Origin: a virus
Lineage: Duplodnaviria > Caudoviricetes
Virus record (IMG/VR): IMGVR_UViG_3300034064_000874
Span: 1-57,725 of that record
Length of the DNA stretch: 57,725 nt
Strand: one strand, 5' to 3'
This document shows, piece after piece, positions 3,505 through 52,271 of the stretch (position 1 is its first letter; each line of letters opens with the position of its first letter). Position numbers and translations under genes: made by a program. The notes under the pieces are model-generated. The model was not told the origin of the DNA. It saw nothing but the letters and a program-made list of their open reading frames with translations, and ran no database searches.

Positions 3505-3993
3505 ATGAACGCGAAGAAGTTTGAAAGCACATACAACGGATTAACGTCAGTGGCCAAAAAAGTCTTTGACGCAACCCCGATTTCTGAGCCTTGGTCAATC
3601 AGCAACATTGTCACTGAGTTGGCGCGCAACGGATCTCATCAAGAACATCGCGTAGTGATGGGAGCCATGCGCGATTTGTGTGGGCGAAAGTTGGCTTATG
3701 AGGTGAGCGCTGGAATGTTCAGGCGCGTGAAAGTTGAGGGGAGGCCTACAAAACCATCGGAGATAAAAGTGGCAGAGCAAAGAACCAAAACAGCAGACGT
3801 AGTTTCAATCAAGCTGCCAGCAACCAAAAAAGGGCCAATGGAGCTTTTAGCCGAATTAGCCACAAAGGCACGACAGTTTGCAGAAGAACTCGATAACGCG
3901 GCGCTGGAGATTGATCAAGAGTTTCAGAACAGCGAAGCCAAGTCAGAAAAACTCAAGCAGCTACAGACACTGCTGAAAAACATCGCTGAATAA
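3505..3993 (+). CDS. Hypothetical protein (possible winged helix plus coiled coil)
   Basis: AAGGAG upstream; 162 aa. Confidence 0.7.
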   Translation: MNAKKFESTYNGLTSVAKKVFDATPISEPWSISNIVTELARNGSHQEHRVVMGAMRDLCGRKLAYEVSAGMFRRVKVEGRPTKPSEIKVAEQRTKTADVVSIKLPATKKGPMELLAELATKARQFAEELDNAALEIDQEFQNSEAKSEKLKQLQTLLKNIAE

Positions 3994-7630: not shown

Positions 7631-7895
7631 GGAAGTCGCTGAGTTTCTGCGCGTGTCACCAGCGACTGTGCGTGACTTGGCGAAGCGCGGAGAAATCCCC
7701 AGCGTTCGCCTTGGGGCGCTGTTTCGCTTTTCACGACCGGCCCTAATGCGGTATTTTGACGAGGCCGGGCAAGGCCAGGAGACAAGCACATGTCAGACCA
7801 TGGCATCTATAAAAGGCCGGACTCCCGCTACTGGTGGGCGGCCTACGCCGACGCCAGCGGCAAAGCGACTCGCCGCTCTACTGGGGTCCGAATAG
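7608..7895 (+). CDS. xis: Excisionase (MerR-type HTH)
   Basis: LLTPKEVAEFLRVSPATVRDLAKRGEIPSVRLG; immediately upstream of and overlapping int. Confidence 0.8.
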   Translation: MEPLLTPKEVAEFLRVSPATVRDLAKRGEIPSVRLGALFRFSRPALMRYFDEAGQGQETSTCQTMASIKGRTPATGGRPTPTPAAKRLAALLGSE

Positions 7896-9167: not shown

Positions 9168-12100
9168 TTATCGGTTTACCTCCTTCACCCGATCATTCAG
9201 CACCTTCATCTGCGTCGCGATCTGACCATCCAGCGCCTTGATGGTCGCCTTGGGGGCATTCTGCGCGATGAGCTTGCGCTTCTTGGATCTCAGCTCAGAC
9301 ACGGCCCGCTCCATCTGATTACCGGCGGGCACCAGCGCGGCCAGCGGGTTTGAGCGCAGGAATCCAGCCACATCCTTGCCGTCCTTCGCCCGGCCTTTGA
9401 TCTCGCTCTCAAGCTCGTTGAGCCGGGTGAGATTGGCGTAGAAGCGATTCGATTCAGCCGACTGGCTTTTGACGTCACCGACGAACCGCCCTACCCCGAG
9501 CGGATACTTGTAGGGAGGGAGTTCCTCGCCGGTCATCCAGGCGGAAGCGGCCTGCTCGATCTTCATAACTTCCCTGCCCACGCCGCCCGTGGCCTGGCTG
9601 AACACGTAATCCAGCTGATCCGGCGTTGGGGAAAGCGCGCCCTGGGTATAGTCCGTGCCGCCCGTGATCCGGTTCAGTCCCCAGGCCAGTTGTTTCGACA
9701 GCCAGGACGCGGTGTCCTTGGTGCGAGTGAACCCTGGCGTGGGAGATGTTGAAGAGCGGTCCTTCTTGGCGATTTCCTTGCCGAATGAATCCCGGTTTTC
9801 TGACAATGCCACCAACGGATCCGCGAAAGTTGGAGCAATTGTCTGCACCGACCAGCCGGCCGATCCGATCGGGTTGAACGCATCGAAGAAGGATCCCAGC
9901 AAGCCGGCAATCTTCTTCCCGGCCCCATCCGGATTGATGGCGATCTCGGTCAGCACCCGCCCGGTATTGGGCAGCACATGAAAGCCCAGCGGCATGGGGA
10001 TGCTGACGTACTTGCCGTTCGGCATGGGGATGATGAAGTTGCGCTCGCGGAGGAATTCCGGTGGCTCGTCATCGTCATAGCCCGCCGCGGCCATGATGGC
10101 AGCCTGCACAACGCCCATGATCAGGCCGCCGGCGACAATCTTCTTCCCGGCCGGGCCTTTCACTGTTTCTGCGAGTCTGGCCGTGCCCTGAACCGCGGCA
10201 TTGAAGAACGCATACAGCGCTCCCGCCTGGCTGGCGATCTGGCCCTTGCGGTTGAAGTTGACGGTGAGCTCCTTGGCCATGACAGCCGCCTGCTCCTTGC
10301 TCATGCCGCTCTCGGTGCCGACCTTATAGGCCGACAGCCGCACGGCATTTTCCAGCGTCTCGTTGTAGTCGGATAGCCAGTCGAACAGGCCTCGGGTGAG
10401 TCGCTTGACCTTGCCGTCCTGGATGGCCTTGAGCTCCTTCTCCAGCGCCTTCATCCGATCATCCGCGGTGGCATACATATCCCGGTAACCGGTCTTGCCG
10501 CCGATGGACTGGAATTCTTCCCAGAGCTGCGACCATGCCGAGCCTTTCCTCGGCTTGCCCTTGCGGTCGGCCCGGAGATCGCCATAGATGCCCGCCATAG
10601 CCGGTGCGATCTTGGCTGCCACTTCCGTCTGCTTGCCGGCAATCGGTGTCGTGGAGAGGTTCAGCATCGCGCCTTGAGTATCGCGCAGCAGGTTGACGAC
10701 GCCGAAGATCGGGTTGTACTGGGTGTTGATGGAGCTGACGTAGCGCGTGATGTAACGGAACGCATTCAGCAGCCCGTGCATCTCTGGCGCATCCAGGTTC
10801 TTCAGCGACTGCGCCATCCGCACCGCCCGCTCGTTCTCGGTGGAGAAGAACAGGAATCGATCCTTGCCCTTGATCCGCACCGCCAACACGTTGTCGCGGT
10901 TTCTCAGTGCCGGATTGATCTTGTACTCGACCAGGCCGGTACGTGGATTGACGGAGGCCACAGTCGGCTCCTGGATGATTCCAGCCAGGTCTGACTCGAG
11001 CATGCCGTTATTGACCAGCTCCTGAGCGACCGAAGCCGGCTTCTTCACGGCATCCGGATTGACCGGATACCAGAACTCCGGATTCGGGTTCTGAATCGCC
11101 AGCCCATAGAGCGCCAGGCCGACCTTGTTTTTCTCGGCGCGTGTAATCGCTCGTTCACGCTGCATCATGACGTTGGCCAGGATATCGACCACGGCCTTGC
11201 CGGATCCAGTCCTGCGCTTGGAGGCGGGGCCCTTGGTGGAGAAGCCCTGCCCTGTGCCCATGCCGCGATTTAAGACATCTTCGCTCTCGCGCTGCAGCGG
11301 GACATAGTCAGCATAGGTCGCCTCCCAGGCGTCGATCGTGTCCTGGGTTTCCAGGCCGGAGTCCACCAGCAAGCGGCGAGTGCCGGCCGTGATGGCATCG
11401 ATCTGCGCAGCCATGGCCTCGAGGTCGGTGCGCTTCCCGGCGGGCAGATTGTTCAGGTAATCCTGAGCATCCTGGGTCAGTATCCCCGAGCCGCCGTCAG
11501 GGTAGGCTTCGTTGATGCGGGCGATCTGCTCATTGGCTTCCTTCGCATGGCGGTTGTGCAGGAATGTTTCCAGTTCGCCGATGGTGATGCCCCGGGTGGA
11601 CATGGCCCGCAGCAGCGGCTTGATCTCGTTCACCTTGAAATCATCCACGTCCTTCGCGGCCCGGCCGTGATAGAGGGTTTCCTTCAGGTAGGGATCCCAG
11701 GCATCAGACACCCGGCTGCCGAGCTTCTCGACGATCCGCTTGGTGTCGATGTGCTTGTCCTGCAGCAGGTAGACGTAGTTGTCCAGCTTGCTGTCGTCAG
11801 GCGTGGTCCAGGTGGCCAGCGCGGGCTGGTTGAGGACGTTGCGGCGGTTACTGAACAGCGGCATACCGTCCAGTGCTTTGTCCTGGAGAGCGGGCGTGAT
11901 ATCGAAGCCGGGTTGTGAGCTGTAGCGGCCTGATTCGGCTGCAGCGACTTGCTCGTCTGCCCAGGCTTGGGCTTGCTCGCGGGTGTCGAAGGTCTCGGCG
12001 CGTCTCGCCTCACCGGCGCCAACGCCGACCCGGAACCGGCCGCCGCTGGTCTCGTTGATCCGCACTACTAGGTCTTCCGGAGTGTCCGATAGGTCTTGCG

Positions 12101-15100
12101 CTGTGCTAATCGAGACCATCGACAGCCTCTGCCCGCCCAGCTTCTTCAGCACTTCATTGGCGGTCTGTGGAACGATCTGATCGTAGAATTTGCGCATGCC
12201 TTCGCCTCCGACTTTGAGGCCTTCGCCAGTAAAGCCGCCGGAATAAACGCCTCTGTCAATGCTTGACCGTATTTTGTCGCCAAGCTCCTTGCCTATGTAG
12301 TCGTCAACCTTGGTTGATGGCATGGTTTCATTGATGAGATAGTTGTTGTCAAACCCTTTGGCTTGCAGCAACACGTTATCCTTCTCTGTGTTTTCCCACG
12401 TTATGCCAGCAACCTGCTTGCTCAGGTCATACAAATCCGCATTCTGCTGCCCATTGGCAAAGGCGATCTTGTCGAAGCCGTTTTCACTTGCAAAGCGGAT
12501 GGCGCGCTTCAGTCCAAGCGACAGCCAGGACTTGGTGTCGGTGACGAAGGGGGCCTGTGGAATCGTGCCGTCAGTGCCGCCCAGGCCAGACTGATACAGC
12601 TCGATCAGTTGCTCATCTGACTGTCCGTAAGCCAAGTTGACTGAATAGCCACCTACCTGCTCGCCTGCCTCATTGCGTATGAAGACGGCGTCAGGGTCGG
12701 ATCGATCCACCGTAAATTGGCCGGATTTCTTGGTTGCGAATCCTCTTTTCTTCCCTTCCTGGCCCCAGTCCGATTGCAGCTCCTGGATAAACATCACCTT
12801 ATTGCCATCGGCATCGGTGCGCTCGTCGAAACGGAGGTGGGCTAGGACGTTCGGCTCGTTCCAGTGGGAGGATCGGTAGTTCTCTGCTTTCTTTTGCTCT
12901 CTTTCTGCCCGCGTGACTGCATTAGCGTCGTCGTCTTCCAGGTCAGAGAACCGACGGCCAAACATATCCTGCGCGATGTCGTTCAAATTACGAGGCTCTC
13001 GCTCTGGCAGCGTGATCAGCAGCTCCTGATAATTGGTGCCTCCAGGGATCGTGTAGCTGGCAAACTTTGGTGCAGCAGCGCCAACCTCTCCGCGCTCAGC
13101 CATCTCGTTTGCCAGTTCAGCAATACGGAAACGAGCTTGCGCTTGATCAGGCATACCATTCCGCTGGAAGCGCTGAGCGTCCTGCTCTGTTTCTCTTGCG
13201 ATCTCAAGCAGGCCATCAGTGGTGCTGGTGTCGCCGCCGTAATAGTCGACGTAGTCCTGCAGCTCTTTGGGTGGGGCCATCTTGCCGCCCTTCATCACCT
13301 CTTCCACGCGCACCCCGTTATCCGCCAGGTAGCTGGCAATATCGGCCTTGGTGAGCTTCTCTTTGGCATTGAGCGTCAGGTAATCCTCGATGCCGGTCCA
13401 AGCGATCTCGTCGTCCTTGATGCCCAGCTTGGCCTTATTACTGAACAGCCAGGCGCGCCACTGCGACCCGGGCATGGAGTTCATCTTGGATGACTCGAAG
13501 CCGCGAGCGAGCTGCGAGTAGAAGGTGGGATTTGGATTGCGCCGGTTGGAATAGAGGATTCCGTCCAGCGCGGGAGGGAGCTCGTTTAGTCCGACAGGAC
13601 CGCTGTCCCCTGCAGATTCAGCCAGTATTCCATCTCGGCCGCTTCCCCGCCTCTCGCCCGGCACTCGGCTGCCCGTCTCCCGTAGAAGGGATGCGAGGAG
13701 CGCCGCTCTTTTAAGCGTAGTGCGGCCCGGAGTCGACGGTCTTTCTCCTCCTGTGGGATTGGAGGTAGATTGTCCAAGTCTAGCCTTGGCCCCGGCCGAT
13801 AGATTTCTGAAGTCGTCATCTGTGAATACCTTCCCCGAGGAGATTTGTTCGAACTGCCTCGTCTTGAAATTGAATTGGATGTCATCTAGCCCTTCAACTC
13901 CAGCATACCCGGCCTCTCGATTTCCTTCAACGGCATTTCGATAGGATTTCTCGATCAATCGGTCCAGATTTCCGGCATCATCGCCCTCGATCCACTCGAT
14001 GTTTTGCAGTTCGTGCGGCTCCAGATGGCGCGTGGTTCCATACTTCAGTGCCGATGACAGCATCTGCTCGGTGCGACGAATCATGGCCTTCTTCGACAGC
14101 CCGTCAGGATCGCCTTTGAACACCAGCCCATTATTGTGAGCATAGGCGCCGATGATGCTATACAGCTCTGAGCCACGGCTCTTGCCAGACTCCAAGTTGG
14201 ATGCATCCACATAGAGCTTGTCGTCCGAGTCGGTTTTCACGAAAGCCGGGGATCCGTCTTCCATGATGATGGTCCAGTTGCGGCCATCGCGAGACGCCTT
14301 CACCTCGATATCCGGGTTAATGTCGTTGGCGATGTCCTGCATTGTCTTCGCATCTGACTTAGGCGACATGAACAACTGGTCAAACTTGGCCAGTTCGGTC
14401 AGCGTTTGCCTGGCACGGAGCTTGGTCGCCGTCGGGATGCGCCGGTTGCTGGCCGGGATGTCCACAGCAGCGCCTTTCTTCGCCCGGCTGGCCATCTCAT
14501 CCGGCCAGAACTTCTCGCTGGTGCCGGTGAATGAAGCCGCGTAGCGGTCGTAGAGGGATGGATTGATCGACTTGACGTACTCACCCCAGGCTTGCGGGGT
14601 TTTGCGCGACCAGTCCTTGCCCATGAGGCGAGCCAGGCGCTTGTTGGCGTTGGGCTCGGCGCGCTCACCGGGCTCAACCTGGGGACGGCCCTGGCCTTCA
14701 AATCGAACCGGGACTTTGTGATCGCCGATCAAAACCGCGGCACGTTGATTGCCGAAGTCAGCGACATAGCCATCGAAGCCGGCATCGATGACGGCGGATT
14801 CCATGTTGTTGTCGCGCTCTTCGGAATTGGCGCCCGTGATGTTCTCCGCAATGCTCAGCGGATCTGCATCAATATCGTAGAGATTCTTGAGCAGGACGGT
14901 GTGGGCATTGCCGCCGACACCCTGCTCAGGGGACACGCCTTGACCGGCGTTGATGTAGAAGTAGATTCGATTGGCGAGGCGCTGGTCAGCCGCGTTCTTG
15001 ACGCGCTCAGCCTCGGCACCGGTCGCCCCAGTGCCGTACTTGGATCCGTCTAGCTCTTTGCGTTCTGCGCTGGAGTAGTGGACGCCGACTGCGCGGACGC

Positions 15101-18100
15101 CGCCTCTTTTTGTTTGGCCATACCCCGGTCGGTCGCCCGCCGCAGAGCTGCTTCCAGCCCGTTCATTGCCGGGATCATTGGGTCGTCGGTTGCTGGCTGG
15201 GATGTCTGGTCCGACGGCTTCATCGAAGAGGCGGTCAGATTCGGCCTGTATGGCGTCAAAATCCCGCTTCCACCGAGGAATGTCTCGCCCGGCCTGGGAT
15301 CCCGCCGAGTCACTTTTGCCATATCGTGTGCCCTCTAAATAGCCTTCCAGCGTGTCAGGCTCGATCCAATCGGATCGGAACGTCGTGCTGGTGGTTTCAT
15401 ATTCAACATCAGATTCAATGCCACTGATAGCCGAATCTATGCCATCGTGAAAAGTCTGCTCGGCAACCTTCCCTTCAGAGAAGTTACCAAATACCAGAGA
15501 GCCGTCGCGGGTGGATACACCCTGCGCATCCGGATAACGCTGATTGATGACCCGGAAAAGATCAGCTTCTTCGGTGACCGAGAGCTTTTTACTCGGTATC
15601 ACCTTCACAAACTGGTTCTGGACGCCAGTCTGCTTGTCGTTCTCGTTGTAAGCGATCATAGCCTTCTGCTTCCACAGAAGACCCACGATTTTGGCAGCCT
15701 CTAGCTGCTGATCATAACTGACTGACTCGCCAAAGTGGATAGTGATGGACGGATTAACCAGTCCCTCAAATCCACCCATCGTGTACTCAAGGCGAAAGTC
15801 CGTGATGCCCAGCTTGTTGAGCACCTTTGGCAGCACGACATCACCGACCTTTCTGGTGACGCGCAGCTTGTCCTTGTAGGGGAGTCCGTCAAATTTAGCC
15901 GCCGCCCCCTGCGCACCCGCCTTTATGTAGTCCGGATTCGGCGCTAGTTCTGCGTTGACTCCGGAGTCTCGTCGGTTGCTGGCTGGGATGTCTGCTTGTC
16001 CAGCCCCGTTATCCTGTCGAACTCTTCCGCCGACACTATCATCTCCGGCGTCCAGCTTTCGTTGTCCGCCTCGAAATCCCGTTGCGGGTCCGATGGTTCC
16101 ACGGAAATCCCCTTTAGAAGCTCGGAGATTTCTTGCTGCGTTCGCGTAATCTGGGGCTTCATCTGGCTCATAATCTTCACCTTTATCTTCTTTGACCTTG
16201 GCGGCCTCGTACAGTCTCTTCTTTTCTGGATACCAGATCAATGCCTGGAAATCCGCCATAGTCAGCCGGTCGTGTACTTCCTGCAGGCGAGTCAGGGCAT
16301 CATTAAAGACGGCTCGGATGAACTTGCGCTGATTGACCCCTTTGGGCGCATCATTTAGGCCTTGCAGCTGGCGAACCAGGTTATTGCCTGCCTTGCGTAT
16401 TTCAGCACCCATATTGGTTCTGGCTTGCCCGCTGCGTGGCTCACCATAAATCTCAATGAACTGCTTAGGGTCGCGCTCACCAATTGGGTTCATGGCGTCG
16501 CGGTTTTCCGGTTTTTGACTGGCTCCGACAATCAGAGCGGCAGTACCGTCCAGGTCGCCTAACAGTAGCTTTCCGCCAATGATCTCTTGTAGGGAGCGAC
16601 GCTCTTGCGCGTCCAGCATACGAATGAGGGAATCCAGTGATTGGCGCTTTGCCTTAATAGCTGCTGGGTCGATGGTTACCAGGTCGCCAGTCCAGCGGTT
16701 CCATGTCCGCATGAACCAGCGATCCATGGTCAACTGCTCGTAGTGCCCGTAGAGGTTGGAGAAGAACCCGTTACCGATTTTTGGCCCCAAGATAATGGAA
16801 CCGTACACCATCTCGTCTTTTCCTTCGCCAGAAATGGTCTTGCCCGTTAACTGCTCGATCTCTCTGACTGGGCGCAGTGTGGTCATGAAGGACTGCAGCC
16901 TGTCATAACCCCACTTGTCCATGTACTCGTTGTAGGTCGCCAAGCCTTCATCGATCTTGGCTTTGGCCGGGCCTTCGCCGATATTCTCCGGCATGCGTCC
17001 GTGGACTCGCAGGTGCGCATACACCTTGTCGGCCAACTCAAAGTTACGGTCAACCTTCATGCCGTTGGAGGTGACAGCCAGCGCCCAGATAAACCCGAAT
17101 CTGGCCTGCGGATCATCGCGCAACTCAAGGTAGATCTCGCCCATGATATCCATGGCGACCGTGAGCTTTCCGTCGTACCAGCCGATGGCGCTGGAGTTCG
17201 TCTTGAGGGCTTCCTGAGCCTCTCGTATGGCAATGCCGACCAAGTAATCGTAGGTGGACTGATCCTTGGCCTTGAGGTCGACACCGGCGGCCTTCGCTAC
17301 CCTATTGATGCGGCGATCTAGCTCAACCCTCAAATCCCTGCCGGTTTTCCACTGGCGCGACTTGGCCAGATCCACTGCGGCATTGATGAAGTTGATTTCT
17401 TCCAGGGTGGCCGGGATGACCCGCTTATTGGTCGGCTCGCTGTCAAACCCCTTGGCGGCCAGGGTGTTTTTCTCAGCGCGGCGGTCTGCCTTTTCACGCT
17501 CCTTTTCGGCCTTTTGCCGCTCACGTTCTTGAGCTTTCTCTGCTTTCTCTTCTTCCGTCAGGCGTTTCTTGCTCTCCAGAATCTCCGGCCCGTCGAACTC
17601 AGGTTCAGTGCCGGTCTGCTGGGCGTTAGCGTACTGAGCGAGAGCCTCTGTGACGGCGTTACGGGCGCGCTGTAGATCCTTCTTGGCAATGGCGGCTTCG
17701 GCGTTGAATCCGGCGCCCTGGAGCTTCTGAATCAGCCCACTCATGAACCCATCCACGGCCCGCAGGAACTTGCCGCCGGAACCCGGGCGCTGCTTGTTCA
17801 TGGCCACGGCAACACGGAACAGGGCGGTGGGCTTGTGGATCACGTCCGACACAAAGTCGGAAACCCACTCTTCCTCATTGCGGCTGGGATCGGTGAGACC
17901 TGGATAGGCGCTGATCGTGTCGCCTTTCTTCGGAAGCTCCTGCTCGTAGTTGCGTTCACCCAGGTGCATGGACACGCCGATCGGGCTGTACACCTCGCGC
18001 AGCGCCGTCACCATGTCGGCATAGATCTTGGGTGCCCGACGACGCAGGCCATGGGTCAGCTCATGAGCGACGACCCGAGAGAAGGTATCTTGAGAATTCT

Positions 18101-21029
18101 TGTTGAGGAGGATTACATCGGGCCGGGATCCGATGATGGCGCCGTCTCGGTCGAGCTCGGTGGTTCCGTCTTCGTGCTCGATGTAGACGACACGGTGGCC
18201 GAATACCTGCGCAATAGACTCAGCAATTCGTCGTTGCACAAATCCGCGACGGGGCAGCGCGGTTGCGGTTTTGATCTTCTGGAGAAGTACGCCTCCACTA
18301 TCTCCAGCTCCTCCGGCGTTAAGGGTGTCAACTGCTGTGTTGTATTCGTCGATGACATCTTGGTCGTTCGCCTTCGTGTTGCTGGCCGCAATATCGGATT
18401 GTACGCCCTGGCTTGCAAGATACTGCTCCGGCGTAATCAGCGGCTGGCCCAGCTGCTTCTGCACGGCGTTCTGGCCGCGCAGCTCACTCTCCTGCTTGGC
18501 GGTCAGTTGAGTCGGCAAAGATTTGTTGCCAGCTGGCCTGGATACACCCTTGATCGTCCGTCTAACCGGAAGCGGCAGCTGATCCCAGTTCTGACTTTTG
18601 ATCTCCGGCATCTCGAGCTCTTCAGCCCAGACGGATTTACCGGCTTCGTCCAGGGTGTCCCAGTAGTCCTTGGTGTTCTGCTCGGGCTGACGCTCTAGTG
18701 CAGGCTCGCTGACAGGATTGTTGGCCGTTGATGCAGTGGTAGTTGCTCCGACATTTCCATCAGCTGATCCACCCTCAAGTCGATCTCGTCCATCAACAGT
18801 GCCAATTCCAGCTCCTCCTTCTGCTCCCTGAGCGAGAGCACTTCCTGCTGCAGTTCCTGGAGCAATTTCTCCAGTGCCTGCCGTGGGATCATTGGCATTG
18901 GGATTCTCCGTGGTGCCGGCGCTTACCTGCCCGCCGGCTGGCATAGGAATAGATCCGGGCGCTTGGCCCGGAAGGTTTAGCAGCCCTTCTTGCCCGGACG
19001 TCCCGGCATTGGCTTCTTGGTTTTGCCCTTCATTGGTGGTCTCCTGAGTGGCGGTGGTAGTTTCTCGATCAGCATTGAGCTGATCCAGGGCTTCAAACGC
19101 ATCCACGTCGGTCGGATGCTGGCTGATGACGGTCCCGGTGTTGGTATCAACAATCTGGAACTCGTTGTCAGAGACTTGCCGGATCTCCGGCGCGATATCG
19201 GTTACCTGCGGCCCTTGGGCGGCATCGACGGCTTGGGATTGCCCTTCTTGGATGGGGGCTTGGGTTGTTCCTGTTGGTTCTGCAGGCGCCGTACTTGCGC
19301 CAGCGGGATCTTGGGCATTGGTGTCTCCTGGAATGCCGGTGGATGAAATGGAGGTGTCTTCGGCTTGGTCTCGCTCAGCCGGCATCGTCGCGGCCGCAGC
19401 AAGACGCCGAGCCATGATGTCGCGGGCCTGCTTGGCGCGCTCAATTCCAGAGAGTCCTGGGTCGGTCTCGGTCTTCAGAATCTCCATGAACATGGGATTC
19501 TTGTTGTAGAGCGACTCGATCTTGTTTTCGGATGACCAGCGTTTGGCCGCCACATCAGCTGCCTTTCCAAGCAGCACCTGGCCGCCGGTTCCGACCAACG
19601 TGGCAACAGCCGTCTGTATCGCTGCAGACGGACGCTCGGCCATGAATTCCTTGGCGGTCTTGTCTGGGTTCAGCTCAACCCACTTATCGAGATCCTGCAG
19701 GAATGTGGCGGCTTGCTCGCCCAGCATTTCTGGAACCAGCTGCTTGGCAAAGGTTTTCCAGAGGGCGTCATTGGCCTTCAAGCTGCCCAGCAACTTGCCC
19801 ATCGGGATAGTCTCAGTGCCGACCTCGATAATGCCCTGGGTTGTCCCGTAGAGTGCAGCTCGCTCCGGGCTTTTGCCGGCATCACGCGCTTCTCCATAGG
19901 ACTGACCACCCGACATGACGCCCATCGGGGCCAGCGCCATCAGCGGATTGCCAGTGACAACAGCCGCCGGGATCGTCATCAGATTCTGGGTGATCGACTG
20001 CATACCGGAGTACACGCCAGATGCCAGATCGCTGTCGGCCTGTGGGGTGAGTCGCTCGGCAATCGTCTTTTGCCCCTGACGCGCCTTACTGTAGGTCTGC
20101 GCCAGTTGCTGGACCGGATCCTGCACACCAAAAGCGTTGAATACGGGTCCGGTCAGATATTTGTTTGTGGCTTCGGCGCCGGCTTGCAAAGTACCAAGGA
20201 CGCCTTCACTGCCCCGATAAACACCGGACAGCGCAGCGGATCCAAGGTTCTTGGCGGCCTGGCCCGGGTTGTTGACCACGCTTTTCGGGTCCATCACCTG
20301 GTTGTAGGCGAAGTCCTCCACCGCATTGCCGGCGTCGCTGATTAGGTTCTTGCCGCGCTGTAGCAGGGACGGCGGTTGTGCGGGAGGCTCGGCGGGCGCT
20401 GAGACAGCTTCCTGCTGGCTCGAAAATGGAACCTCTGCGGCATCTGCTTCGGTGAAGATCTTCATGCCGCCATCAGAAGGCGAGGCATCCGACGTAACAC
20501 CACCATTCCACGCCGCCAGAATCTGCCGAGCATTTCGCCGACGCGCTCCTAAAGCAGGGACTCCAGGACGCTCGAAACCAGACATGTCGCCTGGTTGCCC
20601 CATGAAATTGGTGGTCGCCTGATCAAGGCTGCCAGACCGCTTCAGCGTCTCGAAAGCCGGCCTCTCGCTGGTCAATAACTCCTGCTTGAGGAACTGAAAG
20701 TTGGCATCATCAGACGCTGGGTCGAGATTGTTCGCCTTAACAAACTCCTCAAACTGACGACGACGCGGACCTGTCCACTGGGCCCATCCAAATCCACCAC
20801 GACCACTGACAGGCTTGATCTCCTGCATCTGCTTGAATCCACCGGACTCATGCCACAGGTTGCCCATAACCCCGGCCGCTTGCTCTGGAGTCATCCGCAA
20901 ATCCGGATCATCGATCAGGCGCTGAACACCCGACAGGGCAATATCCATGCTCGAACGGCGCTCGGGCTTGGCATCAGCCAAAGAGGGACCGGCCGATACC
21001 TGATTACCGTCTTCGTCGAATGCCAACAT
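9168..21029 (-). CDS. Giant polyvalent internal virion/ejection protein (3953 aa): tail-lysozyme, zincin, HhH-like, ART-like, GNAT-like and LPD38-like domains
   Basis: AAGVMGNLWHESGG...GWAQWT lysozyme; HELTH; GPKIG...TMDRW...QALIW; HYS...YFY; G.RGSELY; C-terminal IPMPLG...FNPIG...SPTPDQLDY; last gene of the virion operon. Confidence 0.88.
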   Translation of the reverse strand: MLAFDEDGNQVSAGPSLADAKPERRSSMDIALSGVQRLIDDPDLRMTPEQAAGVMGNLWHESGGFKQMQEIKPVSGRGGFGWAQWTGPRRRQFEEFVKANNLDPASDDANFQFLKQELLTSERPAFETLKRSGSLDQATTNFMGQPGDMSGFERPGVPALGARRRNARQILAAWNGGVTSDASPSDGGMKIFTEADAAEVPFSSQQEAVSAPAEPPAQPPSLLQRGKNLISDAGNAVEDFAYNQVMDPKSVVNNPGQAAKNLGSAALSGVYRGSEGVLGTLQAGAEATNKYLTGPVFNAFGVQDPVQQLAQTYSKARQGQKTIAERLTPQADSDLASGVYSGMQSITQNLMTIPAAVVTGNPLMALAPMGVMSGGQSYGEARDAGKSPERAALYGTTQGIIEVGTETIPMGKLLGSLKANDALWKTFAKQLVPEMLGEQAATFLQDLDKWVELNPDKTAKEFMAERPSAAIQTAVATLVGTGGQVLLGKAADVAAKRWSSENKIESLYNKNPMFMEILKTETDPGLSGIERAKQARDIMARRLAAAATMPAERDQAEDTSISSTGIPGDTNAQDPAGASTAPAEPTGTTQAPIQEGQSQAVDAAQGPQVTDIAPEIRQVSDNEFQIVDTNTGTVISQHPTDVDAFEALDQLNADRETTTATQETTNEGQNQEANAGTSGQEGLLNLPGQAPGSIPMPAGGQVSAGTTENPNANDPTAGTGEIAPGTAAGSALAQGAEGGAGIGTVDGRDRLEGGSADGNVGATTTASTANNPVSEPALERQPEQNTKDYWDTLDEAGKSVWAEELEMPEIKSQNWDQLPLPVRRTIKGVSRPAGNKSLPTQLTAKQESELRGQNAVQKQLGQPLITPEQYLASQGVQSDIAASNTKANDQDVIDEYNTAVDTLNAGGAGDSGGVLLQKIKTATALPRRGFVQRRIAESIAQVFGHRVVYIEHEDGTTELDRDGAIIGSRPDVILLNKNSQDTFSRVVAHELTHGLRRRAPKIYADMVTALREVYSPIGVSMHLGERNYEQELPKKGDTISAYPGLTDPSRNEEEWVSDFVSDVIHKPTALFRVAVAMNKQRPGSGGKFLRAVDGFMSGLIQKLQGAGFNAEAAIAKKDLQRARNAVTEALAQYANAQQTGTEPEFDGPEILESKKRLTEEEKAEKAQERERQKAEKEREKADRRAEKNTLAAKGFDSEPTNKRVIPATLEEINFINAAVDLAKSRQWKTGRDLRVELDRRINRVAKAAGVDLKAKDQSTYDYLVGIAIREAQEALKTNSSAIGWYDGKLTVAMDIMGEIYLELRDDPQARFGFIWALAVTSNGMKVDRNFELADKVYAHLRVHGRMPENIGEGPAKAKIDEGLATYNEYMDKWGYDRLQSFMTTLRPVREIEQLTGKTISGEGKDEMVYGSIILGPKIGNGFFSNLYGHYEQLTMDRWFMRTWNRWTGDLVTIDPAAIKAKRQSLDSLIRMLDAQERRSLQEIIGGKLLLGDLDGTAALIVGASQKPENRDAMNPIGERDPKQFIEIYGEPRSGQARTNMGAEIRKAGNNLVRQLQGLNDAPKGVNQRKFIRAVFNDALTRLQEVHDRLTMADFQALIWYPEKKRLYEAAKVKEDKGEDYEPDEAPDYANAARNLRASKGDFRGTIGPATGFRGGQRKLDAGDDSVGGRVRQDNGAGQADIPASNRRDSGVNAELAPNPDYIKAGAQGAAAKFDGLPYKDKLRVTRKVGDVVLPKVLNKLGITDFRLEYTMGGFEGLVNPSITIHFGESVSYDQQLEAAKIVGLLWKQKAMIAYNENDKQTGVQNQFVKVIPSKKLSVTEEADLFRVINQRYPDAQGVSTRDGSLVFGNFSEGKVAEQTFHDGIDSAISGIESDVEYETTSTTFRSDWIEPDTLEGYLEGTRYGKSDSAGSQAGRDIPRWKRDFDAIQAESDRLFDEAVGPDIPASNRRPNDPGNERAGSSSAAGDRPGYGQTKRGGVRAVGVHYSSAERKELDGSKYGTGATGAEAERVKNAADQRLANRIYFYINAGQGVSPEQGVGGNAHTVLLKNLYDIDADPLSIAENITGANSEERDNNMESAVIDAGFDGYVADFGNQRAAVLIGDHKVPVRFEGQGRPQVEPGERAEPNANKRLARLMGKDWSRKTPQAWGEYVKSINPSLYDRYAASFTGTSEKFWPDEMASRAKKGAAVDIPASNRRIPTATKLRARQTLTELAKFDQLFMSPKSDAKTMQDIANDINPDIEVKASRDGRNWTIIMEDGSPAFVKTDSDDKLYVDASNLESGKSRGSELYSIIGAYAHNNGLVFKGDPDGLSKKAMIRRTEQMLSSALKYGTTRHLEPHELQNIEWIEGDDAGNLDRLIEKSYRNAVEGNREAGYAGVEGLDDIQFNFKTRQFEQISSGKVFTDDDFRNLSAGAKARLGQSTSNPTGGERPSTPGRTTLKRAALLASLLRETGSRVPGERRGSGRDGILAESAGDSGPVGLNELPPALDGILYSNRRNPNPTFYSQLARGFESSKMNSMPGSQWRAWLFSNKAKLGIKDDEIAWTGIEDYLTLNAKEKLTKADIASYLADNGVRVEEVMKGGKMAPPKELQDYVDYYGGDTSTTDGLLEIARETEQDAQRFQRNGMPDQAQARFRIAELANEMAERGEVGAAAPKFASYTIPGGTNYQELLITLPEREPRNLNDIAQDMFGRRFSDLEDDDANAVTRAEREQKKAENYRSSHWNEPNVLAHLRFDERTDADGNKVMFIQELQSDWGQEGKKRGFATKKSGQFTVDRSDPDAVFIRNEAGEQVGGYSVNLAYGQSDEQLIELYQSGLGGTDGTIPQAPFVTDTKSWLSLGLKRAIRFASENGFDKIAFANGQQNADLYDLSKQVAGITWENTEKDNVLLQAKGFDNNYLINETMPSTKVDDYIGKELGDKIRSSIDRGVYSGGFTGEGLKVGGEGMRKFYDQIVPQTANEVLKKLGGQRLSMVSISTAQDLSDTPEDLVVRINETSGGRFRVGVGAGEARRAETFDTREQAQAWADEQVAAAESGRYSSQPGFDITPALQDKALDGMPLFSNRRNVLNQPALATWTTPDDSKLDNYVYLLQDKHIDTKRIVEKLGSRVSDAWDPYLKETLYHGRAAKDVDDFKVNEIKPLLRAMSTRGITIGELETFLHNRHAKEANEQIARINEAYPDGGSGILTQDAQDYLNNLPAGKRTDLEAMAAQIDAITAGTRRLLVDSGLETQDTIDAWEATYADYVPLQRESEDVLNRGMGTGQGFSTKGPASKRRTGSGKAVVDILANVMMQRERAITRAEKNKVGLALYGLAIQNPNPEFWYPVNPDAVKKPASVAQELVNNGMLESDLAGIIQEPTVASVNPRTGLVEYKINPALRNRDNVLAVRIKGKDRFLFFSTENERAVRMAQSLKNLDAPEMHGLLNAFRYITRYVSSINTQYNPIFGVVNLLRDTQGAMLNLSTTPIAGKQTEVAAKIAPAMAGIYGDLRADRKGKPRKGSAWSQLWEEFQSIGGKTGYRDMYATADDRMKALEKELKAIQDGKVKRLTRGLFDWLSDYNETLENAVRLSAYKVGTESGMSKEQAAVMAKELTVNFNRKGQIASQAGALYAFFNAAVQGTARLAETVKGPAGKKIVAGGLIMGVVQAAIMAAAGYDDDEPPEFLRERNFIIPMPNGKYVSIPMPLGFHVLPNTGRVLTEIAINPDGAGKKIAGLLGSFFDAFNPIGSAGWSVQTIAPTFADPLVALSENRDSFGKEIAKKDRSSTSPTPGFTRTKDTASWLSKQLAWGLNRITGGTDYTQGALSPTPDQLDYVFSQATGGVGREVMKIEQAASAWMTGEELPPYKYPLGVGRFVGDVKSQSAESNRFYANLTRLNELESEIKGRAKDGKDVAGFLRSNPLAALVPAGNQMERAVSELRSKKRKLIAQNAPKATIKALDGQIATQMKVLNDRVKEVNR
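13586..13819 (-). CDS. Nested +1-frame ORF (77 aa, MTTSEIYRPGPRLDLDNLPPIPQEEKDRRLRAALRLK...)
   Basis: GGAAGGT about 8 nt before ATG; protein-like sequence over a G/R-rich linker of the host gene. Confidence 0.5.
   Translation of the reverse strand: MTTSEIYRPGPRLDLDNLPPIPQEEKDRRLRAALRLKERRSSHPFYGRRAAECRARGGEAAEMEYWLNLQGTAVLSD
15050..15322 (-). CDS. Nested +1-frame ORF (90 aa, MAKVTRRDPRPGETFLGG...)
   Basis: AGAGGG RBS about 8 nt before ATG. Confidence 0.55.
   Translation of the reverse strand: MAKVTRRDPRPGETFLGGSGILTPYRPNLTASSMKPSDQTSQPATDDPMIPAMNGLEAALRRATDRGMAKQKEAASAQSASTTPAQNAKS
15944..16171 (-). CDS. Nested +1-frame acidic ORF (75 aa, MSQMKPQITRTQQEISELLKG...)
   Basis: AAGGTG 6 nt before ATG; acidic, helical-looking sequence. 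Confidence 0.5.
   Translation of the reverse strand: MSQMKPQITRTQQEISELLKGISVEPSDPQRDFEADNESWTPEMIVSAEEFDRITGLDKQTSQPATDETPESTQN
18113..18358 (-). CDS. Nested +1-frame ORF (81 aa, MSSTNTTQQLTPLTPEELEIVEAYFSRR...)
   Basis: Protein-like N-terminal half; weak RBS (AAGG 12 nt upstream). Confidence 0.4.
   Translation of the reverse strand: MSSTNTTQQLTPLTPEELEIVEAYFSRRSKPQPRCPVADLCNDELLSLLRRYSATVSSTSSTKTEPPSSTETAPSSDPGPM
18695..18898 (-). CDS. Nested +1-frame acidic coiled-coil ORF (67 aa, MPMIPRQALEKLLQELQQE...)
   Basis: GGAG-N7-ATG; strong heptad pattern. Confidence 0.62.
   Translation of the reverse strand: MPMIPRQALEKLLQELQQEVLSLREQKEELELALLMDEIDLRVDQLMEMSEQLPLHQRPTILSASLH
18977..19033 (-). 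CDS. Nested +1-frame basic peptide MKGKTKKPMPGRPGKKGC
   Basis: CAGGAG-N7-ATG; TAA stop. Confidence 0.55.
   Translation of the reverse strand: MKGKTKKPMPGRPGKKGC
19202..19318 (-). CDS. Nested +1-frame basic peptide MPKIPLAQVRRLQNQQEQPKPPSKKGNPKPSMPPKGRR
   Basis: CAGGAG-N6-ATG. Confidence 0.55.
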   Translation of the reverse strand: MPKIPLAQVRRLQNQQEQPKPPSKKGNPKPSMPPKGRR

Positions 21030-22448
21030 TTATTTCACCTGCGAAAAAGCGACTTTGATGGGATTACCTTTCTCATCGAACGTATTGACGACCCAATAGG
21101 TGTGGCCGTCTTTGGCGGCGAACAGCTCCTGCTCGCCAGTGCTGGCCGCAAGCTCTGCCTTTTCCTGGGGTATGCCACCGACCGTCACCAGGCCTTGAAC
21201 AGTGCGGATATACTTCTGCCGCTGAGCAAGAAGCTCTTCCTTGCCTGCGCGGTACTTTTCTCCCAGAGGATCATTCGCCGGCGGCGTTTTGGGCTCATCC
21301 GGAATCGGGAAATACTGATTGGCGACGGACTCGGCGCGCTTGATATCGAACCCACCGCCGGATCCGCTGTTTTTGCTGACTGATCCAAGCCCCTTGCTGT
21401 CAGCCTCGGCCCAGTTCTTGTCCTGCTTGGATAGCTCCGTGTCGCTCTGGGCCATTTTGAGATTGAGCTCAGCCTGCTTGATCTGCCTTTCCAGTTCGCT
21501 CTTGCTGCCGTAATCGCCAATCTCGAGACGCTTCTGCAGAGCCTCCAACTGATTCTTGGCGGTCAAGGCGTTCTGATTGTTGATGTAGGCCTCATCACGG
21601 GCCGAAATAGGCTTCGGCGCCCCGTAGGCCAGCGACCTGGAGAATTCCTGCGCCTGCTGACGGATGGTGGGATTCCTGGACAGCATGCGGTTGAACTTGG
21701 CCAGGCCAGTCAGCTTCCGGGCGGCTTCTGATTCTGTCAGCGCCAGTAGCGGGTCGTCGGGGAGAGAGCTGGCAAACTGGGTCGCGGGGGCGTCGTACTC
21801 GGCAAACTCGCCTTTGGCATTGGCGCCCTTGACTCTGAGCATGGGGACGACCTTGCCGTTGACGCGATGGAACCCGACCGGCTCCTTCACAGCGACCCGG
21901 ATCTCTGCCCCGGTTTTCGGGTCACGACCCACATCGCCCAGGTTTCGATTGAAGACAGGCGTCAGCGCCGGCAACAATCGCTTGGCGACTTCTGGATCAT
22001 CAATGGGGATCTGGCCTGAGCGAACGCCTTTGGCCAGATTGTTGATGGTGTCGGCGTCATCTTCCATGTTGAGCATGGGCGCCATGCCGAAGTCCACCAG
22101 CTGCCGATAGTCGTCTTCGTTGATGGAGTCCTTCTTGAGGATGGCTTCGATGACGGGGAACTGAGCCTGCTTGTTGGCCTGCTCCATCGCCAGTCTTTCC
22201 TTGGCAATTTCTAGGCCGCCCTTTTCTTCGTTCATCCGCAACTGCCGTTCCTGGCGGTTGTTGTCCAGCTCCATGTTCTTGGCTTGCGCCTCGTACCAGC
22301 GGTCCTGGGTTTCCTGCCCTTTCCTCAGGCGCTCGGATTCGGCTCGCTGCAGGTCGCGGTTGACGGAGGAGTTGTAGAGGTCGTTTGCGTTCTGCAGGCC
22401 CTGGGTCAAGCCCTGGGTGAAGCCGCGCATTGCAAAGCCGTTGGCCAT
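21030..22448 (-). CDS. Putative internal virion/ejection protein
   Basis: MANGFAMRGFTQGLTQG N-terminus; Q/E-rich coiled coils; position; GGAG RBS. Confidence 0.75.
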   Translation of the reverse strand: MANGFAMRGFTQGLTQGLQNANDLYNSSVNRDLQRAESERLRKGQETQDRWYEAQAKNMELDNNRQERQLRMNEEKGGLEIAKERLAMEQANKQAQFPVIEAILKKDSINEDDYRQLVDFGMAPMLNMEDDADTINNLAKGVRSGQIPIDDPEVAKRLLPALTPVFNRNLGDVGRDPKTGAEIRVAVKEPVGFHRVNGKVVPMLRVKGANAKGEFAEYDAPATQFASSLPDDPLLALTESEAARKLTGLAKFNRMLSRNPTIRQQAQEFSRSLAYGAPKPISARDEAYINNQNALTAKNQLEALQKRLEIGDYGSKSELERQIKQAELNLKMAQSDTELSKQDKNWAEADSKGLGSVSKNSGSGGGFDIKRAESVANQYFPIPDEPKTPPANDPLGEKYRAGKEELLAQRQKYIRTVQGLVTVGGIPQEKAELAASTGEQELFAAKDGHTYWVVNTFDEKGNPIKVAFSQVK

Positions 22449-51464: not shown

Positions 51465-52271
51465 TCAGTGAACCAGGTCGACCAGGGCCTCAGTAAGAGT
51501 CCACAGCGACTTGTTCAACCGAACATTTTCCGAAACCGAATTGACGGCCCGGGTGGTGGTGCGACCGCCATTGCTGTTGCGACCGCGCAGACCGCCCTTG
51601 ATCAGGTTCTCCTGAACCCGGTTGTAGATCGTCCAGGCGTCATTCGAGCGATCAGCAAACCGGCGCAGGCTCAGCAGTTGATCCGCCTTGATCGGCGCCT
51701 CTTCATCCCAGCGCAGTTGCAGAGCCGCGTTGGCATAGGACTGCTGCTGGTACTCGGTCAGCTGCACCGAGCGGAAATCATCCACCCGGCCCTGAATCAG
51801 CTCGCTGTTCTCGATCACCCGGTAAGCACCCTCGATCACGTCGTCCACCACGTTGCCGCTGTGGCGGGTGCGGATCGTTTCGAAGGTGGAATCAGCCACG
51901 ATCAGCCCGTTGGAGCAGACCAGGCGGAACACGCCGGCGGAGAGCTGGTAGCTGCTGGTCCCATCATGGGAGTTCAGCAACACGATCTCAGGCGCCAGCT
52001 CCTTGCCGAAGCCGTCATCGCGACGGAACCGGACAACGTGGCGGGTGTAACCGAAGTTCTCCGCCTTCCGGCTGCGAGCCTCACCGGCATAGACCGGCAG
52101 GAAGCCCTCGTTGCGTAACGCCTCAACAGCGTCGATGGTGGGGATGAAGGTGTAGCGGTGGCTACGGCCTGGGGCGGCGGTCTCAGCGAATACGCTAGGC
52201 GCCAGACGTTGGATCTCGTAGTTTTCGAGCGGACGGCCCTGACCACGGATGGAATTGATGACTGCGTTCAT
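51465..52271 (-). CDS. DUF932/DUF945 family protein
   Basis: APSVFA, RS.RYTFIPT, EIVLLNSHDGTSSYQL.AGVFRLVCSNGL and NRVQENLIKGG motifs. Confidence 0.9.
   Translation of the reverse strand: MNAVINSIRGQGRPLENYEIQRLAPSVFAETAAPGRSHRYTFIPTIDAVEALRNEGFLPVYAGEARSRKAENFGYTRHVVRFRRDDGFGKELAPEIVLLNSHDGTSSYQLSAGVFRLVCSNGLIVADSTFETIRTRHSGNVVDDVIEGAYRVIENSELIQGRVDDFRSVQLTEYQQQSYANAALQLRWDEEAPIKADQLLSLRRFADRSNDAWTIYNRVQENLIKGGLRGRNSNGGRTTTRAVNSVSENVRLNKSLWTLTEALVDLVH

Follow-up and report, generated by a model that had tools for sequence, protein, structure and literature searches.

Three small open reading frames (ORFs), here called o1, o2 and o3, lie out of frame within a single giant virion-protein gene of a tailed phage. 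The window, meaning the whole stretch of DNA analysed, comprises 57,725 nucleotides (nt) of the IMG/VR virus record IMGVR_UViG_3300034064_000874, a 57.7-kb sequence with a completeness rating of 98%. Its minus strand carries a gene of 11.8 kb, and the three ORFs occupy one 690-nt linker of that gene, read in the +1 frame relative to the long protein. The locus is laid out as follows, in the order of transcription.

Three small reading frames in one linker

9168..21029, minus strand: host gene of the nested ORFs, a single ORF of 3953 amino acids (aa) encoding a giant polyvalent virion protein
19325..19330, minus strand: Shine-Dalgarno (SD) sequence of o1, CAGGAG, 6 nt 5' of the ATG, kept in four of four DNA sequences
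19202..19318, minus strand: o1, putative embedded +1-frame gene, 38 aa, isoelectric point (pI) 12.0, nine prolines, MPKIPLAQ...KGRR; ATG at 19318-19316, caggagacaccaATG
19050..19199, minus strand: giant-frame-only segment between o1 and o2, giant-protein aa about 611-660; codon log-odds +0.52 (main frame) and -0.37 (+1 frame)
19041..19046, minus strand: SD sequence of o2, CAGGAG, 7 nt 5' of the ATG, kept in four of four DNA sequences
18977..19033, minus strand: o2, putative embedded +1-frame gene, 18 aa, pI 10.7, MKGKTKKPMPGRPGKKGC; ATG at 19033-19031, caggagaccaccaATG
18906..18909, minus strand: SD core of o3, GGAG, 7 nt 5' of the ATG; CAGGAG at equal spacing in the relative L007
18695..18898, minus strand: o3, putative embedded +1-frame gene, 67 aa, pI 4.6, MPMIPRQALE...SASLH; ATG at 18898-18896, cggagaatcccaATG

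The three starts lie at offsets 1711, 1996 and 2131 of the giant ORF, each leaving a remainder of 1 when divided by three, which places all of them in the +1 frame. A preliminary description of this DNA had pointed to three near-identical initiation regions, at 19318, 19033 and 18898, and these, all on the minus strand, are exactly as it described them. Each nested ATG is made of an asparagine codon of the giant frame (AAT) and the G that follows it, so that the similar initiation regions are at the same time Thr/Pro-Asn-Ala/Glu repeats of the giant protein. The same start motif is found at real genes of the window, aacaggagacatcaATG at 52271 and ccaggagacaagcacATG at 7790.

The translations, too, agree with that description, which had listed two basic peptides of 38 and 18 aa and one acidic product of 67 aa; the calculated pI values are 12.0, 10.7 and 4.6, respectively. 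By inspection of their sequences, o1 and o2 are unstructured, Lys/Pro-rich basic peptides that contain neither a hydrophobic stretch nor a lipobox, and o3 is an acidic helix of 67 aa. The ends of o1 are its conserved parts, with MPK[ILV]P at the N-terminus and MPPKGRR at the C-terminus.

Conservation, selection and access to the nested frame

Three independent DNA relatives of the locus were found, giving four DNA sequences with the window itself:

L002, IMG/VR contig: N-terminal module 94% identical to that of the window at the protein level; head protein 84% identical
L007, metagenome contig: about 91% nucleotide identity to the window
L009, contig of a Methylococcaceae metagenome-assembled genome: giant ORF with an SLT N-terminal module replacing Phage_lysozyme2

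Conservation, whose absence the preliminary description took as a sign against its three genes, extends to all three DNA relatives. In four of four DNA sequences the +1 frame is open over o1, o2 and o3, the ATG of each gene stands at the homologous site, and the flanks of the nested genes are unalignable or replaced across the relatives. The length of o3 is 67 aa throughout. That of o1 is 38 aa in the window, 45 in L007 and 37 in both L002 and L009 (a called variant on another contig, P0022, has 47), and that of o2 is 18 aa in the window and in L007, where the peptide is identical, and 16 aa in L002 (MKGKTKKPVRPGKKGC) and L009 (MKGKAKKPVRPGKKGC). A CAGGAG or GGAG stands 6-8 nt 5' of the ATG at 10 of the 12 starts. 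Both exceptions concern o3: in L002 the stop of o2 abuts the ATG of o3 (TAAATG), a pattern typical of coupled genes, and L009 has GGAA only. The ATG is kept even where the asparagine of the giant frame has become aspartate, as in o1 of L002 and o2 of L009.

Which of the two overlapping frames does selection follow? Between the window and L002, differences fall at nested codon positions 1, 2 and 3 in the numbers 32, 13 and 48 (chi-square p = 5e-5). The third position of the giant frame accounts for 13 of the 93 differences in the nested genes; in the N-terminal domain alongside, it accounts for 101 of 119 (Fisher p = 1e-26). The ratio of nonsynonymous to synonymous substitution rates (dN/dS, Nei-Gojobori), read here for the contrast between the frames, is as follows:

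o3: nested frame 0.19-0.35; same bases in the giant frame 1.2-3.7
o2: nested frame 0.05-0.10; same bases in the giant frame, no synonymous change
o1: nested frame 0.12-0.55; same bases in the giant frame 2.2-4.5

Nested values thus lie at 0.05-0.35 for o3, for o2 and for five of the six o1 pairs, the exception being o1 of the window and L007 at 0.55. The closest pairs tell the same story base by base: the o1 proteins of L009 and L002 are identical, their genes differing at 3 nt that are all nested third positions and all replacements in the giant frame, and between the o2 genes of the same two sequences 4 of 5 differences are synonymous in the nested frame and all 5 nonsynonymous in the giant one. 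When the window is compared with L007 in sliding steps, the reversal is confined to codons 571-600 and 721-780, and the pattern is normal again from codon 781. Among the six frames over o3, its own frame alone is both open and under purifying selection, and the 11 listed o3 variant sites from four sequencing runs fall six times at nested position 3, four times at position 1 and once at position 2. In these comparisons, selection is carried by the nested frame, and the giant frame over o1 and o3 is a nearly unconstrained chain.

We consider it exceedingly improbable that the three are chance open frames in a GC-rich, low-complexity linker, with start regions that are nothing but Thr-Asn-Ala or Asn-Asp-Pro codon repeats. 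The linker does lend itself to such a reading: the ATGs arise from AAT-G codons (Asn followed by G/A/E), other linkers of the gene show a +1-favouring composition without comparative support, and off-frame stops are scarce in this phage (one per 24-37 codons), so that a 67-codon open +1 frame alone is not rare and the decisive evidence is comparative. That evidence speaks against chance, since the frame-specific selection signature appears in every pairwise comparison and o3 has relatives at identities as low as 33-40% whose replacements are conservative. The window by itself argues in the same direction. Five off-frame ORFs of at least 15 aa with a GGAG and ATG occur in the whole 11.8-kb gene, three of them inside this linker, and in synonymous-codon shuffles that preserve the giant protein the linker held at least three such ORFs in 0.6% of 1000 trials (P = 0.006).

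Composition, moreover, flips within the three ORFs. Codon log-odds inside o1, o2 and o3 are +0.10 to +0.22 for the +1 frame and -0.03 to -0.13 for the main frame, and the GC contents at codon positions 1, 2 and 3 (GC1/2/3) show the phage's normal gene profile in the +1 frame; both flanks and the interval between o1 and o2 are positive in the main frame (+0.24 to +0.52) and negative in the +1 frame. The flip in GC3 and codon usage, which is restricted to the three ORFs and counts against chance as well, gives the small genes the appearance of native sequence through which the linker is read, and this suggests, as far as composition can tell, that the small genes are older than the giant-frame linker. 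In the phage's real genes the -1 frame has one stop per 25.8 codons, at which rate the 123 overlapped codons would stay open by chance with a frequency of about 0.8%. The giant frame is kept open across o1-o3, and every insertion or deletion that distinguishes the relatives has a length divisible by three.

Three further linkers of the giant gene, rich in Gly, Arg and Ser, favour the +1 frame by composition, at about 15930-16200, 15030-15270 and 13520-13790 on the minus strand (codons about 1611-1700, 1921-2000 and 2416-2505), with +1 ORFs of 75, 57 and 77 aa. We rejected these ORFs as genes, as they have no clear SDs and no comparative support; when the three linkers were threaded against the relatives, nothing pointed to better preservation of the nested frame than of the main frame.

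Conservation might also reflect a constraint on the nucleic acid itself, such as an RNA structure or a signal for recombination or packaging, or else an antisense gene, with no +1 peptides made. Mosaic junctions do coincide with ORF borders at this locus (see below), and an in-register ORF of 67 aa at 18743-18946 on the plus strand mirrors o3. We nevertheless find this explanation scarcely credible, because the differences have a three-base periodicity that follows the nested sense frame (position 3 > 1 > 2), and no Rfam family reaches its threshold, the best hit scoring 18.1 bits against a gathering score of 49.5. Of the antisense frames over o3, the in-register one and a second each contain 2-3 stops in every sequence, and the third has a dN/dS of 1.65-5.2. 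The ORF at 18743-18946 was rejected as a gene on account of these stops, by which its frame is interrupted over the o3 span in each of the four sequences, that of the window among them; the ORF seems to be a side effect of the o3 codon content (Leu/Glu/Gln).

Another route into the nested frame would be programmed +1 (or -2) frameshifting from the giant frame, with CAGGAG as the stimulator and truncated N-terminal proteins with alternative tails as the products. SD-like elements stimulate frameshifting, as in prfB or dnaX, and no stop interrupts the nested frame over at least 26 codons 5' of the o1 ATG in any of the four sequences, nor between the o1 stop and the o2 stop. However, the ATG is kept at 12 of 12 starts, even with the giant-frame residue changed, the SD-ATG spacing of 6-8 nt is that of the window's own initiation sites, and the sequence shows no slippery or stop-codon shift site. 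A nested-frame stop also lies 0-9 codons 5' of the o3 ATG in four of four sequences, abutting it in L002, an argument that bears on o3; for o1 taken by itself, access by frameshifting is conceivable. Access by frameshifting is quite improbable because of these stops together with the retention of all 12 ATGs.

We conclude from the sequence comparisons that o1, o2 and o3 are in all probability real protein-coding genes in the +1 frame of the giant-protein linker, and we think it likely, with a little less assurance, that they are embedded genes with independent internal initiation. The mini-operon of three nested peptide genes put forward in the preliminary description is strongly supported by conservation, by the retention of starts and SDs and by selection on the nested frame. 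The genes would lie on the same late mRNA as the giant gene, with ribosomes starting separately at each internal (C)AGGAG or GGAG plus ATG, and in at least one relative (L002) the start of o3 would be coupled to the o2 stop. The giant linker, in turn, would be produced by reading straight through the small-gene operon in another frame.

Several points weigh against this conclusion. The DNA relatives are few, with three independent ones. No sigma-70-like promoter or terminator was found in 18300-19900 (0 sites of either kind), which makes expression of o1-o3 dependent on the transcript of the giant gene, and o3 of L009 is without a good SD. Window and L007 share 40% identity in o1 at a dN/dS of 0.55, so the middle of o1 is loosely constrained. 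Standard dN/dS is biased in overlapping genes, for which reason we trust the contrast between frames and not the absolute values. The sequencing runs were read as contigs only; these carry no RNA ends or levels, and their uncovered parts are uninformative. Finally, P0021, one of the giant proteins threaded below, possibly belongs to the same phage as L002 and may duplicate a relative.

Two relatives have a possible fourth +1-frame ORF, Arg-rich and homologous between them (L007:4538-4738, plus strand, 66 aa; L009:6208-6396, plus strand, 62 aa), which is absent from the window and L002. It precedes o3 in L007, where it has taken over the window-type GGAG and ATG of o3, and follows o3 in L009. 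Its selection signal is weak, with a nested dN/dS of 0.55 and differences by codon position of 30/25/30.

The o3 family, the cassette borders and the host protein

A profile of o3 run against 1.84 billion protein representatives returned four matches, three of them small proteins of 56-69 aa, and a word-index search returned 11, all on short metagenome contigs. Two sequences were set aside: P0004 (1303 aa, E = 6.7e-4, matching in five stretches) was treated as coiled-coil noise, and P0006 (382 aa, of the P0001 cluster) is an unrelated protease-like sequence. In the alignment of 16 family members Leu16, Leu23, Leu30, Leu46, Glu48, Pro54, Leu62 and the C-terminal His67 are invariant, and Leu13 and Leu34 nearly so. 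A 69-aa subfamily is 36-40% identical to the o3 of the window, and P0003 is a relative at 33% identity.

As no DNA was available for the 69-aa subfamily, we applied a codon-choice compatibility test, which asks whether a suitable set of codons would allow a peptide to be encoded in the +1 frame of another protein. Of 70 positions, 67 are compatible when the peptide P0014 is placed in the +1 frame of the giant protein P0019, and 68 when P0012 is placed in that of P0020, the next-best placements reaching 27-29; window-type and L002-type peptides likewise fit the giant proteins P0017, P0018 and P0021. Together, the DNA and the threading results place the embedded arrangement in four DNA loci and five further giant proteins.

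In all members with readable context the cassette stands at one position, between an N-terminal cell-wall hydrolase module and a variable effector array, and it extends from the giant-frame motif PEDT(S/T)ISSTG, about 55 nt 5' of the o1 ATG, to the o3 stop. The 5' edge is a mosaic junction:

19370..19376, minus strand: 5' edge of the cassette, where the contigs of two runs diverge; the N-terminal module of L009 differs up to PEDTTISSTG

Contigs of four runs from four studies break at 18695, 18902 and 19370-19376, the first two of which are the borders of o3. Modules on either side are exchanged. Upstream, the window, L002 and L007 have Phage_lysozyme2 with a conserved module, and L009 and P0019 have SLT with another module; downstream, the window and L007 share a domain, and L002, L009 and P0018 have a ddrB-like ParB domain. 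P0018 joins a window-type cassette to an L002-type downstream part exactly at the o3 stop, and the effector sets farther along differ as well (LPD37/LPD38, ddrB-ParB, RadC). At least part of a 1.1-kb stretch of the locus is found in 24 runs from 15 studies, one of these runs possibly the window's own source, and three contain half or more of the sampled words; the run labels are lake, freshwater, aquatic, groundwater, wastewater, aquaculture, soil and salt-marsh metagenomes.

What might the products do? AlphaFold, given 16 sequences, predicts o3 as one helix over residues 6-51 (46 residues) with a floppy tail; the mean predicted local distance difference test score (pLDDT) is 86.8, mostly above 90 in the helix. 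A leucine-heptad pattern runs along this one long helix in the manner of a leucine zipper. Heptad leucines on a single long amphipathic helix point to coiled-coil pairing, and on this model o3 most likely pairs as a coiled coil. The giant frame over o1 and o3, modelled with four sequences in the alignment, is predicted to be disordered (pLDDT 33-41). The preliminary description, which spoke of a disordered linker, is supported by this model. The segment between o1 and o2 (19050-19199, minus strand) is predicted to fold as a beta-beta-beta-alpha mini-domain (pLDDT 76-88, four sequences; 'NEFQIVDTNTGTVISQHPTDVDAFEALDQL'). L002 and L009 have counterparts of this mini-domain that are strongly diverged, and P0019 contains it a second time.

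Because the cassette travels as a unit and always sits at the junction of hydrolase and effector array, we propose that its products may work on the giant protein or together with it. A role as helpers or companions is possible, and we put it forward tentatively: the products might keep the giant protein assembly-competent, help to load it into the head, or travel with it. The acidic helix of o3 may partner the basic peptides, and the earlier proposal that the basic peptides condense DNA or serve as core proteins, with the coiled coil as a chaperone of the giant protein, may apply. Both the single helix of o3 and the fixed junction fit a role linked to the giant protein, without showing it. 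Against an assignment of function stands the ESM Atlas search, which gave no usable match (best score 0.81 for o3, none for o1). No family in PHROGs, Pfam or NCBIfam scored above its cut-off for o1, o3, P0002, P0003 or the fourth ORF, and the weak coiled-coil hits all fell far short of their gathering scores. Neither these libraries nor the Atlas recognised any of the three products.

As to how the arrangement arose, we speculate that the o1-o3 operon is the older element, that a cell-wall hydrolase ejection protein and an effector array were fused by reading through it, that the small genes kept their function, with the acidic zipper helix and the basic Lys/Pro peptides as a dedicated helper set that would load the giant polyvalent protein or accompany it, and that the cassette is now exchanged among different giant proteins as a gene-bearing linker.

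The small genes might instead be real and unrelated to the giant protein, a host-takeover or counter-defence cassette, with an acidic DNA-mimic-like helix and basic peptides, that hitch-hikes in a tolerant linker. Small acidic phage proteins are often mimics or inhibitors, and the sharp mosaic borders, with the cassette combined with different N- and C-terminal modules, agree with such mobility. Polyvalent proteins have, in addition, been described as arrays of conflict effectors (PMC5512222). We consider this alternative unlikely, because all readable members stand at the same giant-protein junction (in the four DNA loci and the five threaded proteins, one of which possibly duplicates L002), whereas a free-moving cassette would be expected in intergenic sites, and no such copy was found in GenBank phages or IMG/VR.

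Pfam places Phage_lysozyme2 (aa 46-171), LPD37 (2209-2451) and LPD38 (3653-3844) on the 3953-aa host protein above their cut-offs, and these three domains identify it as a phage-type large polyvalent protein; several unrelated domains, LPD included, are joined in one very long polypeptide, as is usual for that type. Its aa 249-471 are similar to the Bordetella phage BPP-1 protein Bbp10 and to the "lysis protein" of Caulobacter Rauchvirus phages, whose genes are located in the virion or ejection-protein block of those phages. Giant proteins of the relatives carry ddrB-ParB, RadC and SLT domains. The window also encodes an integrase, portal, major head protein, terminase and a homologue of an internal virion protein.

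A zinc-peptidase-like motif, HELTH, is seen in the translation near aa 960 of the giant protein, with no Pfam peptidase call; no peptidase matched anywhere in the protein in Pfam at E up to 0.01. A (D)IPASNRR or SNRR motif is repeated at several domain borders (aa about 1670, 1945, 2140, 2490 and 2920). The SNRR-type repeats and HELTH may be candidates for the processing sites and the processing peptidase expected of polyvalent proteins.

Beyond the relatives described, searches gave little or nothing. Among GenBank phages no DNA relative of 18000-20000 was found, and o3 gave no tblastn match at E up to 1. In IMG/VR, neither the N-terminal module nor o3, P0002 or P0003 brought up anything but the L002 contig, and a first scan of a genome collection with the N-terminal module returned no match. 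The genome holding L009 has no match to the window's head protein. The L009 contig (49.9 kb) is binned with a methanotroph genome, and the 484-aa neighbour upstream of its giant gene is 38% identical to the product of 21030-22448 in the window; the binning is possibly a host clue, and possibly an artefact.

Embedded genes and polyvalent proteins elsewhere

In phage lambda Rz/Rz1 and T7 18.5/18.7, a larger gene wholly contains a small one, which is read in the +1 frame from an SD and ATG of its own, and one product is proline-rich. The cassette described here resembles these pairs in its +1-frame embedding, its own SD and ATG at the nested starts, and a proline-rich product. The embedding of the Rz1 gene is documented (PMC5295617). 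In contrast to Rz1, o1-o3 have no signal peptide, lipobox or membrane segment, and their sole cysteine is the last residue of o2; we rejected a spanin reading on these grounds, there being no hydrophobic N-terminal stretch, lipobox or membrane signal in any of the three. The host gene differs as well, being a 3953-aa Phage_lysozyme2/LPD37/LPD38 virion protein and not an inner-membrane i-spanin like Rz, and three genes are embedded in a row, with a possible fourth in two relatives, instead of one.

Overprinted virus genes offer a second comparison. In these, both frames are used, the chain encoded by one of them is disordered or loosely constrained, and each frame limits synonymous change in the other (PMC8227390, PMC6195259, PMC7017920). 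The likeness to phiX174 A/A*/B/K and D/E and to the accessory genes of RNA viruses lies in the use of two frames, one of which encodes a disordered chain. Unlike small viruses, a tailed phage of 57.7 kb has no lack of room for genes; the overlap occurs in a single linker of a single giant gene, and it moves as a mosaic cassette among different giant proteins.

Helpers for large virion proteins are known from phage P1, where the small accessory proteins Hdf, DarA and DdrA are needed to load large polyvalent-type Dar/Ddr proteins into the head. In L002 and L009 the cassette is followed directly by a ddrB-like ParB domain. DdrB itself is processed and packaged into the head (PMC5512222). The parallel would be one of role only, as o1-o3 have no sequence similarity to the P1 helpers, which are separate genes and not embedded ones. 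The host gene, for its part, has LPD37, LPD38 and a lysozyme domain like the polyvalent proteins of Iyer, Burroughs, Anand, de Souza and Aravind (2017, PMC5512222), and the main text of that paper does not contain the word "overlapping" and mentions no linker-embedded genes; the embedded cassette comes on top of the architecture described there. A full-text search of the literature gave no account of genes embedded in polyvalent or giant virion proteins. To our knowledge, gene callers do not report embedded out-of-frame genes inside large tailed-phage genes, and the linkers of giant polyvalent proteins may hide more of them, which makes all-frame scanning worthwhile.

The three new small proteins come with exact start codons that can be silenced without altering the giant protein, so that the handling, packaging and delivery of giant effectors becomes testable. 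The locus also offers a clean natural example for the idea that a second reading frame can be accommodated by disordered segments, or can give rise to them. Tiny viruses and spanin pairs are the textbook cases of out-of-frame embedded genes. What appears to be newly described here, judged from sequence, is a conserved three-gene cassette embedded in the linkers of giant phage proteins and encoding new small protein families, in which the embedded arrangement persists to about 36-40% protein identity and the hidden frame is under stronger selection than the annotated one.

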